Notes: generated by a model from the letters alone, not told the origin. DNA of 64,000 nucleotides from Candidatus Magasanikiibacteriota bacterium (GCA_052033375.1 JBPOJQ010000008.1:1185-65184), one strand, 5' to 3'; counted from the stretch's first letter, positions 2,291 to 44,150 are shown. A program made the numbers and translations.

Positions 2291-2375
2291 TTACGCGGGA
2301 TTAGTATAATGGTATTATGCTGGCTTCCCAAGCCAGAGAAGCGAGTCCGATTCTCGTATCCCGCTCCAGAAAGTA

Positions 2376-3548
2376 ATGAGGTGGTTCTCTGTATTTATGA
2401 GTATGCGATTTCGAAGTGCATTATTTCATGTTTTGTATCGAGGGTTAGTAAAACCAATTTTTTTTGCACAAGATCCAGAGTCGATTCACGATCGAATGGG
2501 TATCGTCGGCGAGCGATTGGGGCGGAGTCGGATTGGGCGTGCACTCATTCGTATCTGCTTTGGCTACACGCATCATTCACTCGAGCAACATCTGTGGGGT
2601 ATGCATTTTTCAAATCCGGTGGGACTTGCTGCAGGATTTGATAAAGAGGGGACTATTCATAGCATTCTTCCGAGTCTGGGATTTGGCTTTGCAGAAGTCG
2701 GTACTGTCACCTTTGGTGCGTATGAGGGTAATCCGAAGCCACGACTCTATCGTCTTCCGAAGTCACACGGATTGGTAGTGTATTATGGTCTGAAGAATAG
2801 TGGAGCGCATGCAGTGGCAAAATATCTGAAAAACCAACCCAAAAAAATACCACAGATAATCTCGATAGGAAAAACGAATTGCAGTAGAACTGCTGATGAG
2901 GCGAAAGGTGTAGATGATTATCGAAGTGGTCTTGCTGTGTTTGAAGATGCGGGAGTGGGAGATGCCTACGAGCTGAATATCTCATGTCCAAATACGTTTG
3001 GAGGAGAACCATTCACTACTCCTGAAAAATTACGCAGACTACTGGAGACACTTGAAGTGCAAAAAAATTCAAAACCAATAATTTTAAAAATGCCCATCAA
3101 TCTGGATTGGGACGCATTTCGTGGACTACTCGATGTGGCAATACAATTCCGTGTGCATGCGGTAAATATTGGTAATTTGAATAAAGACAGGAATGATCCT
3201 GAGCTCAAAGAAAAAATTCCAACACATATCAAAGGTGCTCTCAGTGGCAAGCCTACGTGGGAGCGTTCAAATGATCTCATTTCACGGACATATGCATATT
3301 GTGGACAACGCATGGTAATTATTGGTACCGGGGGTATTTTTTCTGCCGCAGACGCGTATGAAAAAATAAAACGGGGTGCGTCACTAGTCGAATTGATCAC
3401 GGGTATGATTTATGAAGGCCCTCAATTGATTGGAGAGATTACACATGGTCTCGTGCACCTGCTCGCGCGTGATGGATATAGTCATATCAGTGAAGCGGTA
3501 GGAGCGTATCATCGGACAATGATTGACAAAATGCCCAAGAATAGCTAA
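2376..3548 (+). CDS. pyrD: Dihydroorotate dehydrogenase (quinone), class 2
   Basis: Hydrophobic N-terminus; conserved GFAEVGTVT and NISCPNT motifs; FMN-binding C-terminal GTGGI; start may lie a few codons downstream of 2376. Confidence 0.85.
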   Translation: MRWFSVFMSMRFRSALFHVLYRGLVKPIFFAQDPESIHDRMGIVGERLGRSRIGRALIRICFGYTHHSLEQHLWGMHFSNPVGLAAGFDKEGTIHSILPSLGFGFAEVGTVTFGAYEGNPKPRLYRLPKSHGLVVYYGLKNSGAHAVAKYLKNQPKKIPQIISIGKTNCSRTADEAKGVDDYRSGLAVFEDAGVGDAYELNISCPNTFGGEPFTTPEKLRRLLETLEVQKNSKPIILKMPINLDWDAFRGLLDVAIQFRVHAVNIGNLNKDRNDPELKEKIPTHIKGALSGKPTWERSNDLISRTYAYCGQRMVIIGTGGIFSAADAYEKIKRGASLVELITGMIYEGPQLIGEITHGLVHLLARDGYSHISEAVGAYHRTMIDKMPKNS

Positions 3549-38169: not shown

Positions 38170-40428
38170 TTATAAAGTCTTAATTAATTCAAAAACATCT
38201 TTTATATCTTTTTTATAGTCATTTAAGCCAAGTTGACCTTCAGGATACTGACCGTTGGTAGAATTATCATGATGTGTCAAATTAGTAAGTATAGAATTTA
38301 TTTCTGTACGCTTACTTACTTCTGCATAAGGTCCTCCTGGTTCTTCTAGTTTTGTCAGCATGTCACCTACAGTATTAATCTCTTTTGTCAGTTCAATAGG
38401 ATACTTAACCTTAAGAACATGCTCAATAACTTTTCTTATGCAACCATGAGCATTCTTCACTACAGCTATATCCTGCGATGATCCTGCACTCTTCATGTCA
38501 GTAATCCAGCAGTTATAGTCACTCATAAACTCTGCGTCTTCGTGAGGGTTGCATACCGTAAAGTCACTTCCGTTTACTGAATCAAGGGATATTCTCAAAA
38601 AAGCTGTTGTCGCATCTCCTGCACTTTCAGCATGCAAGAGTTGGTAGAAGCCCTTTTCGTGAGTAAGAATTATTAGTTGCTTGTCGGTGGCTGACAAGAT
38701 TCTCTTAATCTCAGTTAGAATAATTCTCTTTCTATCAGAGTCGAAGCTTGATACTGGATCGTCCATGACCACAACTTTGATCGTTGCGTCGTTCTTTACA
38801 GTAGCTAAAAAGAAAGCGAGAGCGAGCACCCACTTATCACTATCACTCAAACAGTTTTTAACTGTCATCTCCGAGTCATCACCATCATTGGATATCTCAC
38901 TGCCAGACATACTCAATACAAGCAGTTCTTGTCTTTGATTTCCTTTAAAATTAAATTTCTGTACCGTAAAATCGCAGTTACACGCAGTCAGAACATCATT
39001 GATATCTTTAAGCATCGCGGTTGAGAGTCCGTTTGCATATACCAAGTATTCTTCCCAAAGCTTTGTCTTTTCCGCACTAAGAGTTTTACTCTCTTTCTGA
39101 GCTTTCAGATAATTTTCACATCGGTCTTTCCAAGAATCGAATCGTTCCTTGTTTGCTTCAAGTGTCTTTAGTGATGTTTCGAGTTCAGCTTTCTTTTTTG
39201 TAGGATTCTTGAAGTTCACTAGTTCAGCATCAATAGCAACAATGTGAGCATCAGCTTTTGTTGAAATATCCGCAAACGGCACTGTGTCGAAGTCGCTTGA
39301 TAGATCATCTTTTTTGTTTGTGATTGATTTCTTGCAAGACTCAAAAAGTCCATCAATATCAGAAAAGTCTATTTCCAAAATGTACCCCGCTTGTTTGAGG
39401 TCTGTTTTAATTTTCTCTATCTCAGTTGAAAAACTCTCCTGAGGGAATAGACCCTCTGTTTCTTTGATCGCTTGCTGAAGATTTCGGTACTTATTGTTAT
39501 AGATCAGATCAATTGTCGCAAGGAATTCTTTTACTGAATCCTCTTTAATCTCTTGCGTACAAAATGGGCAGTGCTCATTTTCGGCACGAGAACGTAATTT
39601 AGCTCCTGATTGTAGAAAAGCACTATACGATTGCTTTGTTTCTTTTGAATTTACATGACTCTCGAAATGATTTGCTATGAGTTCACTGTTTACAGAAAGA
39701 TTTTCGGAAATTTGAGTAGTATCAAAATTCTTGTATCGCTCAAGCAAAGTTTTTATACTCCCGAGTTTACTCGATATCAACTCTGAATTTTTTACTTTAT
39801 CAAGATCCTTTTGCCCTTTCTCGATTTTAGTATCAATATCAGCAACTTCAGTAAGCCCGAGAAAAGTTTCAAAAGATAGCCCTCCTAAAAGGTGTTTGTT
39901 TCTTGTGTACTCGCCATTAATTGATGTTTGAGTCTTTGTGTTCTCAGCTATTTGTTCAGCAAGTCCTGCGATTTTTACATTATATTCAACACCTTTTGCA
40001 CCGAGCATAAACGCCTCAATGTTCTTCTGCTGTTCCTGACCAATTTGCTGGTTTTGAGTGTAGACACTTTCTCTGACAAAGTGGTTATCAAAAACTATGA
40101 TGTCCTTATACTCCGCACTCCACTTAGCTTCGTCTGTTGTGTATCTATACTCTCCTGTAGGCGTAGTGACTTCGGGAATAATCTTTATAGTCTGCTTTTG
40201 GCTTCCGATTGTCTTTCTTCCAATAATGTAGTCTGGCTTGTTTTCCTTTAATGAACGAAAAATTGATGTGAGGGTGCTTTTACCAAAAGTGTTTTTTCCA
40301 TACACAAAAGTATTCTTCTTGAAGAATTGTTCATCACCCTCTGTTTTGGCGGATTTGAATCGACCAACATTATTTATTTCTATTTTTTTTAACATATTTA
40401 AAATTATACCTTCTTCAAAAACTCCCAA
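38170..40428 (-). CDS. RloC/PrrC-like ABC-ATPase with zinc hook and C-terminal HEPN nuclease domain
   Basis: Walker A VYGKNTFGKST; central coiled-coil with CPFC; ABC signature LSDSDKWVLALAFFLA; Walker B/D-loop IKVVVMDDPVSSFD; C-terminal Rx4H (HGCIRKVIEH). Confidence 0.7.
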   Translation of the reverse strand: MGVFEEGIILNMLKKIEINNVGRFKSAKTEGDEQFFKKNTFVYGKNTFGKSTLTSIFRSLKENKPDYIIGRKTIGSQKQTIKIIPEVTTPTGEYRYTTDEAKWSAEYKDIIVFDNHFVRESVYTQNQQIGQEQQKNIEAFMLGAKGVEYNVKIAGLAEQIAENTKTQTSINGEYTRNKHLLGGLSFETFLGLTEVADIDTKIEKGQKDLDKVKNSELISSKLGSIKTLLERYKNFDTTQISENLSVNSELIANHFESHVNSKETKQSYSAFLQSGAKLRSRAENEHCPFCTQEIKEDSVKEFLATIDLIYNNKYRNLQQAIKETEGLFPQESFSTEIEKIKTDLKQAGYILEIDFSDIDGLFESCKKSITNKKDDLSSDFDTVPFADISTKADAHIVAIDAELVNFKNPTKKKAELETSLKTLEANKERFDSWKDRCENYLKAQKESKTLSAEKTKLWEEYLVYANGLSTAMLKDINDVLTACNCDFTVQKFNFKGNQRQELLVLSMSGSEISNDGDDSEMTVKNCLSDSDKWVLALAFFLATVKNDATIKVVVMDDPVSSFDSDRKRIILTEIKRILSATDKQLIILTHEKGFYQLLHAESAGDATTAFLRISLDSVNGSDFTVCNPHEDAEFMSDYNCWITDMKSAGSSQDIAVVKNAHGCIRKVIEHVLKVKYPIELTKEINTVGDMLTKLEEPGGPYAEVSKRTEINSILTNLTHHDNSTNGQYPEGQLGLNDYKKDIKDVFELIKTL

Positions 40429-40560: not shown

Positions 40561-40933
40561 TGGCTCGGCGGGCGGGGCTCGAACCCGCGACCCACTGGTT
40601 ACAGTATCCTTCCTCTTTCAAGGAAGACTGGACTATGTCATCACCCATGCCGTAAACCTGGCAGAATAAATTCTCCAAGAGCCTGGGGGTGCGGAGCGCT
40701 TCCCGCCCCGACGTTGTCGGGGAAGTACTCCCATAAAGGGATAGTCTCTGAACCTTTCTAATCCGCCGCTAATTCCAGTAAAACTGGAGCATCGGATTAA
40801 ACTTGGCTGCAGGTTACCCTATGGAAAACCATAGTAGCGGCTTCCTGCAATTCACTCCGTTGGCATCCTGACATTACTATCAAGAGCTGCTAATTTTTAA
40901 CAGCCAGTTGCTCTACCGCTGAGCTACCGCCGA
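40561..40933 (-). tRNA. tRNA-Asn (anticodon GUU) interrupted by a ~298-nt group I intron in the anticodon loop
   Basis: 5' exon (~40900-40933): TCGGCGG-TA-GCTCAGCGGTAGAGC-A-ACTGG-CUGU; 3' exon (40561-40601): UAA-CCAGT-GGGTC-GCGGGTTCGAGCCCCGC-CCGCCGA-G-CCA; spliced loop CUGUUAA gives GUU. Confidence 0.75.
40602..40899 (-). other. Group I self-splicing intron (candidate)
   Basis: Minus-strand core elements: AATTGCAGGAAG (P-like), CTGCAGCCAAGT (P4/P6 Q-like), GGTTCAGAGACTA (R/P7 5'), ATAGTCC (S/P7 3'); terminal G before 3' exon; U at 5' splice site. Confidence 0.65.
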
Positions 40934-40982: not shown

Positions 40983-41050
40983 TCATGTAAAAAATTCTCT
41001 TATCCAAGGGATTTTTGTTGACTCGAAAACGTGTATGAGATATTCTAGAG

Positions 41051-41668
41051 TTGATTTACTCTGTATCTTATTTTTCTATGCATTCTCCAGAAAACGAAAG
41101 GCGCATGCCGACTGAAAACATACAGCTCGCAGAAAAAATAAAACGTATCATGCATCACATGAAATATGCAGAGGGGAGTACAGCATATGCAGGATGCACG
41201 AAAATGCTTCGAGCGCTCGATATGAATTCAGAGTTGGTGTATAACAAGCGTGATCCAGAGCAATGGCTGTCTGAATTGGAGAGTAGGGGTGTGATTAGCA
41301 CACGAGAGTATGATGTCTGTCTTGATATTATCACTTCTGAAATACATTTTGAAAAACCATCGACCGAAACACGCGAAGATGAATATACTGCCGAAGATGA
41401 TGTGGTGTGGAATAGTGCATGGGATGAAGCTGTGAGAGGATTTGTAGCAACGTATCCTACTCATCGCAAGGTAGTCGATACCATTACGGAGATGTGTCAG
41501 AAGTCCCGATGTGGGAGAAATCAATATGTCGATGATTTTATTGCGCCATATGTACGCGCAGGAGTGATCTCGCGTACAGATGAGAATAAATATATAGATG
41601 TCTTAGCTACAATACAGGAAAAAGCGCAGATAGAGTATGAAAAGAAACGGCAGAATTCCGACATCTAA
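41051..41668 (+). CDS. Hypothetical protein
   Basis: 205-aa acidic soluble ORF with no recognised motifs; divergent from tRNA-Asn. Confidence 0.35.
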   Translation: MIYSVSYFSMHSPENERRMPTENIQLAEKIKRIMHHMKYAEGSTAYAGCTKMLRALDMNSELVYNKRDPEQWLSELESRGVISTREYDVCLDIITSEIHFEKPSTETREDEYTAEDDVVWNSAWDEAVRGFVATYPTHRKVVDTITEMCQKSRCGRNQYVDDFIAPYVRAGVISRTDENKYIDVLATIQEKAQIEYEKKRQNSDI

Positions 41669-41719
41669 AATTTCAAAACATACAAAAAATCCCTCGATAT
41701 GCTCGGGGGATTTTTTTGC

Positions 41720-42220
41720 TTAACTTTTCTTGATTTCTTTGATATTCGTCGCTTTGGTGGTGAACAGTACACCATTTAGATGATCAACTTCGTGCTGTAT
41801 CACTCGGGCAAAGAAATTTCGTGCGTCGAATGAGAGTTTTTTTCCATTTCGATCCAGTGCTTCGACATGAATGTCTGAATACCGCTTGACTGTTCCATAG
41901 AGTCCAGGAATCGAGAGACACCCCTCCTGGTCAGTATTGGTTTTTTTGGTTGTCTTGTGCCAGATGGGATTGATAAGTACCAGATCTTCATGAGGTACAC
42001 CGGATTTTCGGTCTGTACGCACTGCTTCTTTTCCGATAATGCATACCTGGACTGAATGATTCACCTGTGGAGCGGCGAGTCCGATACCTTCACTCGCATA
42101 CATCGTTGGAATCATCTGAGTGATGAGTTGTTGTATGTCTGTAGAAATGATTTCACTCTCAGTGAGTTCACGCGCGGGTGTTTCGAGAATGGTATTTGGG
42201 ACTGTGATAATGTGTAGCAT
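41720..42220 (-). CDS. def: Peptide deformylase
   Basis: GIGLAAPQV (motif 1), EGCLSIPG (motif 2), HEVDHLNG (motif 3); ATG 42220 (MLHIITVP) preferred over 42322. Confidence 0.85.
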   Translation of the reverse strand: MLHIITVPNTILETPARELTESEIISTDIQQLITQMIPTMYASEGIGLAAPQVNHSVQVCIIGKEAVRTDRKSGVPHEDLVLINPIWHKTTKKTNTDQEGCLSIPGLYGTVKRYSDIHVEALDRNGKKLSFDARNFFARVIQHEVDHLNGVLFTTKATNIKEIKKS

Positions 42221-42233
42221 AGGTAGAAAAAAA

Positions 42234-44150
42234 CTAGGGAGAAAAAATAGAAAGTGGCTGTACATCGACGACACATCCCATGGGGAGATACGGGTGGATA
42301 CGCTGTGCAATTGATAGTACATTCGCAGGCGATGTTTTTATGAGCATACCCCGTCGATACATCCGCTGGTGAAATGCAGGATGTGTCTCATATATTTCGC
42401 TGATAGTAGCAGTAATTCCCTCTGATGTCAATCGTCGTTGGACGTCTTCCCGGAATTGTGTAGCCTGTGTATGTGCCGTATTCCGATGAGGAGAGGATAG
42501 TGTATATTTTATCATACTTTGATAGGGAGGGTAACCAAGTTTTTGTCTCAGATTGAGTTCTGATCGGTAGATACGATCACGTTCGGAAAATAATTTGAAG
42601 ATAGGTTTGTCTGCAGTGTGTGTCTCGATAATGAATTGAGAGTCTGGTTTTCTCAGATAATTGAATGTACTGAGCAGGTGTACCACATGTTCGACTGATT
42701 GGAATTCTGGTATTGCGAGATATCGGTCGAGATCAAGAATGATGAAGAGTCCGGTGCGGTGAGGGCGGATGTAGGGGAATATTTTTTCAGTCCCGACGAT
42801 TAGTCGAGGTGTGTCAGACACGAGTTCGCGTAGGGTATTCTCATCACTATTATCATCAATACGAAATATCGGTCGGGTGATGCCTTCGGAGTGGAATATG
42901 GTAGAAAAATGAGAAGCAATTTTTTCAGTACCTATACCACGGAGAAGCATCACAACTGAGCCACAGGCACTGCAGGTGAGTGGGAGTGGACGAGAATCAG
43001 TGTGGTGTGTGCCGTGGAGCATGCGCGTCTCCGCTCGATATACCATGGGTAATCCGGTGAGAGCGGATGTCTCGATATGTCCGCAATCTTTGCAGACGAC
43101 CATAGTCGCATAGCCTTTGCGTTGCACGAGTATCACGATATCTTCGGCAGTGTGTCTCGCATGATAGAGAATCTGCTCCTCGGTCTGTATTGCACAGACG
43201 CGTACCTCACGTGGTTGGGGCACCTGTTCGATGATGCGAATAGTAGTACTCTGATGTGCGCTGGTAGGAAATAGCAATCCATCATGATACGGGGTCGAGT
43301 CGATCATGCAGGGCATTTTTTCTTTGAGAATTCGATAATAGAGTTCGAAACTGGGAGAAAAACTCGCATATACACATTCGCAGGCGTGTGCAGTGCCGAC
43401 GAGTCTTACGAGGTCGCGTGCATGATATTTGGGTTGTTGATCATAGCTTTTGTATTGTTCATCATGCTCGGCATCCATGATGATTCGGTCGAGGTGTACA
43501 AAAGGTAGGGTGAGCGCACTGCGTGTGCCGAGTACAATGAGTGGCCCGGTAGTATTACGCACCTGTAGCCATCGAGCGAATTTTTCTTTGTCTGATAAAT
43601 CCGAATGCCAGATGACACAGGGTATACCGATCTGGTTGAGTAATGCATGTGTAGTCTCAAGAGCACCAAGCTCGGGCACAAGCACGAGAGTCGTGTGTGT
43701 CGGGTCTATCAGGGAAAAAAGTTCGGCGCGTTCCTGGGGAGAAGTATAGAGTCTATAGGACTCGGTGTACGTGCGACGAGGTGGTCGATTGTTCAATTCT
43801 GGCTCGAGATGCATTTTCTGCAATTTTCTTTTTTGGATGGGCAAGGCAGATGTCTTGTATACGGTAGCAAGGGAGGTTGCATAGAGCAGGGAGAGATCTC
43901 GGAGTATTGCTCGAGTGGTCGAGGGAAATAGTGGAGTAGTGTGCACGAGAGCGGTAATTGGTTTGTAGGCAAAATCAGGATTTGGTGTATCAGAAAGCAA
44001 GACTACGATACCGAATTGAGTAGTCTTTCGAAGTTCAATTTCTACGAGCTGTCCGAGGGCAATCGTCTGTTCAAACTCGGGGGGTATGGCGTAATCAAAT
44101 AGCGAAGAATGCCGCGGAAGACGCTTCAGGGGGACAATAGTCGCAATCAT
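42234..44150 (-). CDS. priA: Primosomal protein N' (PriA)-like helicase, possibly degenerate
   Basis: PriA-like N-terminal 3'-DNA-binding region, DEAH-like IIMDAEHDEQY, Cys4 cluster (CKDCGH...CSACGS); canonical Walker A not evident. Confidence 0.55.
   Translation of the reverse strand: MIATIVPLKRLPRHSSLFDYAIPPEFEQTIALGQLVEIELRKTTQFGIVVLLSDTPNPDFAYKPITALVHTTPLFPSTTRAILRDLSLLYATSLATVYKTSALPIQKRKLQKMHLEPELNNRPPRRTYTESYRLYTSPQERAELFSLIDPTHTTLVLVPELGALETTHALLNQIGIPCVIWHSDLSDKEKFARWLQVRNTTGPLIVLGTRSALTLPFVHLDRIIMDAEHDEQYKSYDQQPKYHARDLVRLVGTAHACECVYASFSPSFELYYRILKEKMPCMIDSTPYHDGLLFPTSAHQSTTIRIIEQVPQPREVRVCAIQTEEQILYHARHTAEDIVILVQRKGYATMVVCKDCGHIETSALTGLPMVYRAETRMLHGTHHTDSRPLPLTCSACGSVVMLLRGIGTEKIASHFSTIFHSEGITRPIFRIDDNSDENTLRELVSDTPRLIVGTEKIFPYIRPHRTGLFIILDLDRYLAIPEFQSVEHVVHLLSTFNYLRKPDSQFIIETHTADKPIFKLFSERDRIYRSELNLRQKLGYPPYQSMIKYTLSSPHRNTAHTQATQFREDVQRRLTSEGITATISEIYETHPAFHQRMYRRGMLIKTSPANVLSIAQRIHPYLPMGCVVDVQPLSIFSP

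Follow-up and report, generated by a model that had tools for sequence, protein, structure and literature searches.

A 64,000-nucleotide stretch of DNA from a Candidatus Magasanikiibacteriota bacterium (GCA_052033375.1 JBPOJQ010000008.1:1185-65184; hereafter the window, in whose coordinates all positions are given) carries, on its minus strand at 40933-40561, a tRNA-Asn(GUU) gene that is interrupted by a 298-nucleotide (nt) group I intron between U35 and U36, that is, within the anticodon itself. From this sequence and its relatives, we judge it highly likely that the gene is a monocistronic locus of an uncultured, ultra-small, Magasanikbacteria-related member of the Candidate Phyla Radiation (CPR), that it is expressed, and that its intron is competent for splicing, lacks an open reading frame (ORF), has been inherited vertically and was probably lost once, precisely, among the relatives. 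All of the sequence-level features defining a group I intron that we tested were confirmed, and the intron is very probably functional; from the same features we infer that the gene is transcribed, that the intron is catalytic and that the tRNA depends on its removal.

Splice junctions within the anticodon

The 34-nt 5' exon (40933-40900), whose 3' end reads ...ACUGGCUGU, comprises the 5' strand of the acceptor stem, the D arm, the 5' strand of the anticodon stem and C32, U33, G34 and U35. It is followed by the intron (40899-40602), which starts with UAAAAAUUAGCAGC and ends in ...GGAUACUG, and by the 41-nt 3' exon (40601-40561), which reads UAACCAGU...CCGCCGAG-CCA and supplies U36, A37, A38, the 3' strand of the anticodon stem, the variable loop, the T arm, the 3' strand of the acceptor stem, the discriminator base G73 and an encoded CCA. 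ARAGORN called no tRNA here when run on the unspliced gene in the 64-kilobase (kb) window; from the joined exons it called a canonical 75-nt tRNA-Asn(GUU) with the anticodon loop CUGUUAA and G73 before the CCA. An earlier reading of the sequence alone (the original prediction) had placed an insert of about 298 nt in the anticodon loop of tRNA-Asn(GUU), with exons that reconstitute a canonical tRNA with this loop and with a terminal G before the 3' exon. Its length and coordinates proved exact, the ARAGORN call on the joined exons bears out the tRNA, and the terminal guanosine (omega-G) is the last intron base at 40602, where the intron ends in ACUG and where all eight copies of the intron described below have G.

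Because the anticodon is G34 U35 U36 and the intron itself starts with U, cuts after U35 and after U36 are both conceivable. A cut after U35 gives a U35.G wobble in P1 (GCUGU/GCAGC, followed by intron UAA/UUA) and an intron ending in G (ACUG-UAACC, the hyphen marking the junction). With a cut after U36, the splice site would instead carry a Watson-Crick U-A pair and the intron would end in U. The junction after U35 is therefore unique, being the sole cut that obeys both group I rules (U.G pair and terminal G). The junctions are fixed independently by intron-less orthologous tRNA-Asn genes, which are colinear with the predicted ligated exons, the 5' exon included. The predicted ligated-exon junction thus reads CUGU-UAAC and would be spanned by GGCUGUUAACCAG.

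Copies of the intron in related genomes

An exact-match scan of representative genomes for the exon-intron junction yielded three metagenome-assembled genomes (MAGs), and a pattern scan of metagenomes yielded a divergent copy, L004; another match of the pattern scan, L005, was rejected as a chance hit in coding sequence. In all, eight intron-bearing tRNA-Asn genes were collected, the window copy (intron of 298 nt) and seven in other assemblies, mostly syntenic Candidatus Magasanikbacteria-like MAGs: L001 (CAYSXR010000005.1, 296 nt), L002 (CAYUTO010000001.1, 296 nt), L003 (a Candidatus Magasanikbacteria MAG, 298 nt), L006 (GCA_018061425.1, 295 nt), L011 (ENA ERZ761600, 278 nt), L013 (GCA_034680565.1, 294 nt) and L004 (a JGI metagenome contig, 247 nt). 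Each of the eight has a 34-nt 5' exon ending in CUGU, a 3' exon opening with UAACCAG and an intron of 247-298 nt, and the seven other copies score 82.6-89 bits against the Rfam group I model RF00028, all above threshold. Between the window and L001-L003, tRNA and intron are 91.6-92.0% identical, compared with 68-74% for the flanking DNA and 63-87% for the flanking proteins; being better kept than their flanks, the tRNA and the intron appear to be under purifying selection.

The MAGs of L001 and L002 bear the label 'uncultured Gammaproteobacteria', which is probably wrong: in gene order they agree with the Candidatus Magasanikbacteria MAGs (L003 and L006), their PriA is 74-91% identical to the PriA of those MAGs, and the tRNA-Asn intron is near-identical. 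L004 has a clearly different tRNA-Asn backbone (acceptor stem UCCCGGG, compared with UCGGCGG). It probably also belongs to the CPR, because the protein encoded beside it is closest to proteins of Candidatus Gracilibacteria (78%) and Parcubacteria (73%) MAGs. No tRNA-Asn lies near the Candidatus Gracilibacteria locus that encodes this nearest relative. A separate observation concerns the Candidatus Gracilibacteria contig L014, which carries at 2312-2387 (+) a tRNA-Ile with anticodon UAU, an uncommon form of AUA decoding in bacteria.

Fold and family match of the intron

The original prediction had made its case depend on a covariance-model hit and on P3-P7 pairing. Against Rfam Intron_gpI (RF00028) the sequence scored 85.1 bits (gathering score 50, E=3e-20), the match at 40909-40609 (-) spanning the model at full length (1-253/253), and the P3-P7 pairings form in all eight copies, with compensatory changes in their support. 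The intron folds with a minimum free energy (MFE) of -109.2 kcal/mol (z = -4.42), as well as which none of 200 shuffled sequences folded, and the unconstrained MFE fold recovers every nested element, namely P1-P6, two extra hairpins, P8 and P9.

In P1 (40887-40903), exon CUGU and intron UAA pair with the guide UUAGCAG, and the wobble pair U35.G marks the 5' splice site (U at 40900); this helix is 100% paired and invariant in the seven copies that can be aligned with one another, and is also formed in L004. As read from the sequence, the guide UUA can alternatively pair with the first three bases of the 3' exon, UAA, to give a P10 of 3 base pairs. P2 (40867-40884) is a hairpin with a GUAA loop of the GNRA type, in which 5/7 pairs change on both sides. 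P3 joins CGGAGUG (40853-40859) to CGCUCCG (40692-40698); it is 100% paired, and two of its pairs are changed in a compensatory manner in L004 (C-G to U-A, A-U to G-C). The P4-P5-P6 domain (40752-40849) is built of P4 (UGCAGG/CCUGCA), P5 (GCC/GGU), P5a, P6 (GC/GU) and a P6a-c extension, with compensatory changes in P4 (in L004), P5, P5a and P6a. The 5' strand of P7, G-(bulged A)-GACUA (40742-40748), is 100% paired and invariant and forms the pseudoknot with the 3' strand UAGUCC (40630-40635). The G-C pair beside the bulged A (G-(A)-GACUA/UAGUC-C) is the predicted guanosine-binding site, an assignment made by analogy with the P7 arrangement of Tetrahymena. Between P7 and the 3' strand of P3 lies a 43-nt insertion (40699-40741) with two hairpins, one P7.1-like (UCCC/GGGA) and one P7.2-like (CCCCGAC/GUCGGGG on a CUU/AAG base), both recovered by the MFE fold. 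P8 (40642-40691) has a CACCC/GGGUG base and distal helices and is 100% paired, with a compensatory change from A-U to G-C in L004, and P9 (40609-40626) is the hairpin CUUCCUU-GAAA-GAGGAAG, also 100% paired, two pairs of which change on both sides.

The core motifs quoted in the original prediction are all present. Its P4/P6 region, CTGCAGCCAAGT, corresponds to the 3' strand of P4 plus P6; the sequence offered as the 5' strand of P7, GGTTCAGAGACTA, takes in the 3' strand of P6, J6/7 and the 5' strand of P7; and ATAGTCC is, as stated, the 3' strand of P7. The designation 'P-like' for AATTGCAGGAAG gives way to J3/4 and the 5' strand of P4. ORFs that overlap the intron are of 22-50 amino acids (aa) only, the longest (50 aa) extending into the 3' exon and the terminator, and no ORF for a homing endonuclease (LAGLIDADG, GIY-YIG, HNH or His-Cys box) was found inside the intron.

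Covariation in the paired regions

Pairs were counted in alignment A2 of the seven alignable copies, which holds 116 pairs including those of the tRNA stems; L004 was kept out of these tool-based counts because a MAFFT alignment that includes it is unreliable in the peripheral domains, and was handled in a hand-curated helix table with five sequences. In the P1-P9 model with the P3/P7 pseudoknot, 97.5% of the cells are paired, compared with 33-45% when partners are slid by 1-3 columns. Twenty-one pairs are changed on both sides, compared with 7.5 ± 2.0 in shuffles (0/500), and the covariation score is 0.164, compared with 0.098 in shuffles (0/500), although the shuffle control overstates the significance because the sequences are related, the slid control being the fairer one. 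The few cells that are not paired fall in P2, where L011 has a 2x2 internal loop, in one P7.2 pair and in the P5a and P6a-c regions, the last two because L011 and L013 differ in length there and MAFFT misaligns them. The tRNA stems are 100% paired in the seven copies, with 3 pairs changed on both sides. In the hand-curated table, 11/11 core helices are fully paired in the five sequences, the divergent L004 among them, and two-sided compensatory changes occur in P2, P3 (two), P4, P5, P5a, P6a, P8 and P9.

A tertiary covariation between L2 and P8 was also considered. L004 has GAAA in L2 and a P8 (675-706) with CCUAAA...UAUGG, which comes close to the 11-nt GAAA receptor of the classical type; in the window clade L2 is GUAA and the CCUAAA...UAUGG motif is missing, and L013 has GAAA in L2 and no such motif. 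The proposed correspondence (GUAA with a CC:GG helix versus GAAA with the 11-nt receptor) was dropped because L013, with GAAA in L2, does not differ at the base of P8 from L011, which has GUAA.

Proteins assist the splicing of many group I introns in nature, and the present one might splice in vivo only with a host protein, a maturase or a chaperone, and not autonomously. Such a protein could bind the extra P7.1/P7.2-like domain and the lengthy extensions of P6 and P8, or these elements could stabilise the RNA. We consider dependence on a protein unlikely, though worth bearing in mind, given that the core is complete and stable, with GC-rich P3, P7.2 and P8 and an MFE of -109 kcal/mol (z = -4.4), that the GNRA loops in L2 and L9 are as in the protein-independent Azoarcus intron, and that no co-conserved candidate gene for a cofactor is found beside the locus.

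Inheritance of the intron and intron-less orthologues

Three relatives whose PriA proteins are 54-57% identical to that of the window (L008, L009 and L010) have an uninterrupted tRNA-Asn(GUU) in the syntenic neighbourhood, directly after def in L008 and L009. These genes align without gaps to the ligated exons of the window, with the same acceptor stem and anticodon loop and with compensatory changes in the anticodon and T stems. In a PriA tree, L008-L010 form one clade together with L007, whose contig ends before the tRNA, and this clade is flanked by lineages with the intron, namely L011, L013 and the window clade. Over the seven taxa present in both trees, introns and PriA give the same topology, and the introns become less alike as their hosts diverge (71-99% identity for the introns, 45-91% for PriA). 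These sequence comparisons favour vertical inheritance with one precise loss, and one loss suffices for the pattern because the intron-less genomes form a single clade.

The distribution is patchy, in that the window clade, L011 and L013 have the intron and L008-L010 lack it, and it might instead reflect recent horizontal spread, with homing or reverse splicing carrying the intron into tRNA-Asn genes in several lineages. L004, where a related intron occupies the same site in a clearly different tRNA-Asn backbone, speaks for such spread, as does the perfect target GGCUGU-UAACC that the intron-less alleles keep. We regard horizontal spread as improbable all the same: the intron contains no endonuclease ORF, the locus is syntenic, the intron and PriA trees agree, the introns have diverged in step with their hosts, and a single loss in the one intron-less clade is enough. 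The single-gene tree with its midpoint root, together with the target site kept by the intron-less alleles, leaves repeated gain a small probability.

The same intron pattern had no match in viral contigs, and a distant blastn search with the intron found no match in plasmid records and, in phage records, nothing beyond a 38-nt core match in Prevotella Lak phages, so that these blastn searches lend no support to a phage or plasmid origin of the intron. The match, of 89% identity, lies at 209414-209450 of the Lak-A1 Prevotella phage (MK250015.1) and corresponds to 40725-40762 of the window (intron 138-175), in the P6'/J6/7/P7 core, which suggests that Lak megaphage genomes contain a group I intron that is not annotated.

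Predicted expression and splicing

A sigma-70-type promoter, TTGACT-17-TATACT, with 10/12 hexamer matches, lies at 40982-40954 (-), and its position implies a 5' leader of about 14 nt for removal by RNase P. An intrinsic terminator at 40561-40534 (-), consisting of an A/U-extended hairpin, whose stem is CCAGUC/GACUGG, and a T run after it, stands directly behind the gene, which is therefore monocistronic. Both elements had been proposed in the original prediction and were recovered. A -35/-10 pair with 17-nt spacing and a varying spacer sequence is found in L001-L003, L006, L008, L009 and L013; L011 shows the -10 element alone within the extracted stretch, and no promoter was identified upstream of the tRNA-Asn of L010. 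A terminator-like hairpin, differing in sequence, follows each orthologous gene that was inspected.

From these elements and the fold, we propose that a precursor of about 390 nt would be transcribed from this promoter and end at the terminator, and that its intron would fold into the P1-P9 structure, pseudoknotted through P3 and P7. By standard group I chemistry, the G-C pair of P7 would bind an external guanosine, and this guanosine would attack the phosphate after U35, the base that forms the U.G wobble in P1. The guide UUA would then pair with the 3'-exon UAA (P10), the terminal G at 40602 would enter the G site, and the free 3'-OH of U35 would attack the 3' splice site, joining the exons into the loop CUGUUAA. 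RNase P and 3' processing would yield the mature tRNA.

Several points weigh against this reading. Transcription and splicing are supported at the level of the sequence and not of RNA; a second, uninterrupted tRNA-Asn gene was not found by ARAGORN, in a search that covers the 64-kb window alone; the host tree is a neighbour-joining tree of one protein, PriA, with a midpoint root; and P1, P7 and P7.1, as well as P3, P4 and P8 for the most part, show no variation across the seven aligned copies, so that their support consists of the pairing itself and the single divergent L004. The inflated significance of the shuffle control counts here as well.

That the tRNA finder does not call the gene, and that the view is limited to DNA and to the 64-kb window, could also be accommodated if the intron were a decayed, non-splicing remnant, the locus a tRNA-Asn pseudogene and an intact tRNA-Asn present elsewhere in the genome. 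This seems very improbable to us. The tRNA and intron are 92% identical where the flanks are about 70% identical, all eight copies keep every core helix unbroken, with many of the changes compensatory, and nothing is damaged in the U.G pair, the G-site pair, the terminal G or the J-region motifs. In addition, promoter hexamers and terminator-like hairpins accompany most of the orthologous genes inspected, relatives have exactly one tRNA-Asn at the syntenic spot, and tRNA genes are usually single-copy in the CPR. That the interruption is a chimera or artefact of assembly, conceivable in that the sequences come from MAGs, has a negligible chance, because the same architecture recurs, with lineage-specific substitutions, in eight assemblies that are independent of one another and stem from different projects (NCBI, ENA and JGI).

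Comparison with known introns

The intron resembles those of the Azoarcus sp. BH72 pre-tRNA-Ile(CAU), of subgroup IC3, and of the Agrobacterium tRNA-Arg(CCU), which likewise lie in the anticodon loop of a bacterial tRNA and contain no ORF. As in Azoarcus-type introns, the 5' exon ends in a U paired to G and P1 is short. As in Azoarcus, L2 and L9 are GNRA loops (here GUAA and GAAA), and the core motifs (G/C)AGCCAAG, AGGU..AGAGACUA, CAUAGUCCAG and the L9 GAAA are common to both. In IC3 introns such loops dock into receptors in P8 and P5; no canonical 11-nt receptor is seen in P5 or P8 of the window copy. The host and site differ, being tRNA-Asn and 35/36 here, whereas the Azoarcus 5' exon presumably ends with the whole anticodon CAU, at position 36/37. 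The GUG guide of Azoarcus is consistent with a 36/37 site, and pairwise alignment with the Azoarcus ribozyme template from the same source gave about 50% identity (PMC8890501).

The present intron is also longer (298 nt compared with about 205 nt in Azoarcus), with much longer P6 and P8, and P7 is separated from P3' by 43 nt in the window and 32 nt in L004, with extra hairpins, compared with 3 nt in Azoarcus. The CCUAAG...UAUGG receptors of Azoarcus P5/P8 are not seen in the window copy, whereas P8 of L004 has CCUAAA...UAUGG. Introns of subgroup IA carry P7.1/P7.2 between P7 and P3'. Insertion in a tRNA anticodon loop is a feature shared with IC3; the compact P7-P3' junction without P7.1/P7.2 that marks IC3 introns is absent. 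To judge from its sequence, the intron should work like the IC3 tRNA introns; we do not assert that it belongs to IC3, because this junction is not compact and because the comparison consists of one pairwise alignment with Azoarcus.

The introns of cyanobacterial and plastid tRNA-Leu(UAA) and of cyanobacterial tRNA-fMet are also of the self-splicing type, lie in the anticodon loop and are sporadic among relatives. They differ from the present intron in isotype, in position and in occurring in cyanobacteria rather than in CPR/Patescibacteria; the site of the tRNA-Leu intron we take to be between U34 and A35 (34/35). Vertical inheritance over long periods has been described for the tRNA-Leu intron (Paquin et al., 1997; Rudi & Jakobsen, 1999, as reported in PMC5733544 and PMC8450103). 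Within the same organism group, CPR genomes are described as tolerating self-splicing introns in ribosomal RNA (rRNA) genes (PMC8172020; PMC11809585, citing Tsurumaki et al., 2024), which, like the tRNA-Asn gene, are essential structural RNA genes; those introns lie in 16S/23S, often with LAGLIDADG genes, whereas the present one is a tRNA intron without an ORF.

Lui et al. (2021; PMC8172020) remark in passing that some tRNAs in complete CPR genomes have group I introns, and the general phenomenon in the CPR is therefore already known. The passages that bear on it give no isotype, position, structure or distribution, all of which the present case provides for tRNA-Asn; as far as those passages go, CPR tRNA group I introns are known in general and not described in detail. 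The classical hosts are tRNA-Leu(UAA), tRNA-fMet and tRNA-Ile(CAU), along with tRNA-Arg(CCU), in cyanobacteria and alpha/beta-proteobacteria (PMC11408192, PMC8450103), and those listed include tRNA-Leu(UAA) of Burkholderia and tRNA-Ile2 of Acidovorax and Burkholderia (PMC8450103, PMC2686568, PMC11408192). No paper naming a group I intron in a bacterial tRNA-Asn was found in the searchable literature, which agrees with the expectation, voiced in the original prediction, that tRNA-Asn is an uncommon host.

Neighbouring genes

The window neighbours are ordinary chromosomal genes, encoding peptide deformylase, PriA, a LigB/Memo-like protein, a D-Ala-D-Ala carboxypeptidase and YibE/F, and the nearest named relatives of the window PriA are those of Candidatus Magasanikbacteria (Patescibacteria group, Parcubacteria group). 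Downstream, the tRNA terminator is adjoined by a gene for a 752-aa AAA_13 ATPase (38170-40428, -); in PADLOC the protein hits the candidate defence family PDC-S06 (E=1.8e-48), with weaker hits to LmuB and AbiLi. None of the syntenic loci has this gene, which for this reason looks like a window-specific insertion in a variable region beside the tRNA; a functional link between this gene and the intron or tRNA was rejected on the same ground. The roughly 0.7 kb between def and the tRNA promoter (40985-41710) is likewise found in the window only, the orthologous gap in L001-L003 being about 170 nt; a 205-aa ORF inside it (41051-41668, +) had no match in Pfam, NCBIfam, PADLOC or PHROGs. The def ORF at 41720-42322 (-), listed as 200 aa, starts about 35 codons upstream of the starts of its homologues (165-166 aa) and overlaps the end of priA, and the true def start is probably downstream. 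The 3'-terminal CCA of the tRNA-Asn is encoded in the window (40561-40563), L004 and L008 and is not encoded in L001-L003, L006, L009-L011 and L013, so that CCA encoding flips among close relatives.

Implications for CPR biology

The mechanism itself will not surprise specialists, and the type of intron is known; what is new is the host isotype, the position within the anticodon, the lineage and the variation in the peripheral domains. The case fills a gap, extending the catalogue of group I introns in bacterial tRNAs by an isotype, an anticodon position and a major lineage, the CPR, all three of them new. The compact GC-rich core with an added peripheral domain could also serve structural or engineering work.

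For genome annotation, tRNAscan-SE was not designed for such introns, according to its authors (PMC8450103), and because ARAGORN misses the gene as well, the genomes concerned appear to be without tRNA-Asn. If the family is widespread, 'missing tRNA-Asn' calls would be systematic in CPR annotation, and such apparent absence can distort estimates of completeness and inferences on translation.

The eight intron-bearing and three intron-less loci make up a clean natural system for vertical inheritance and for the precise loss of an ORF-less ribozyme. Going further, and holding this wider view with slightly more doubt than conviction, we suggest that the introns may represent a distinct and ancient tRNA-intron family of CPR/Patescibacteria, defined by the Asn isotype, the 35/36 site and an IC3-like core with a P7.1/P7.2-like domain, which has been lost precisely at least once and which probably resides in the sole tRNA-Asn gene of its hosts, whose genomes are reduced, so that all decoding of Asn codons in these bacteria would depend on a ribozyme.

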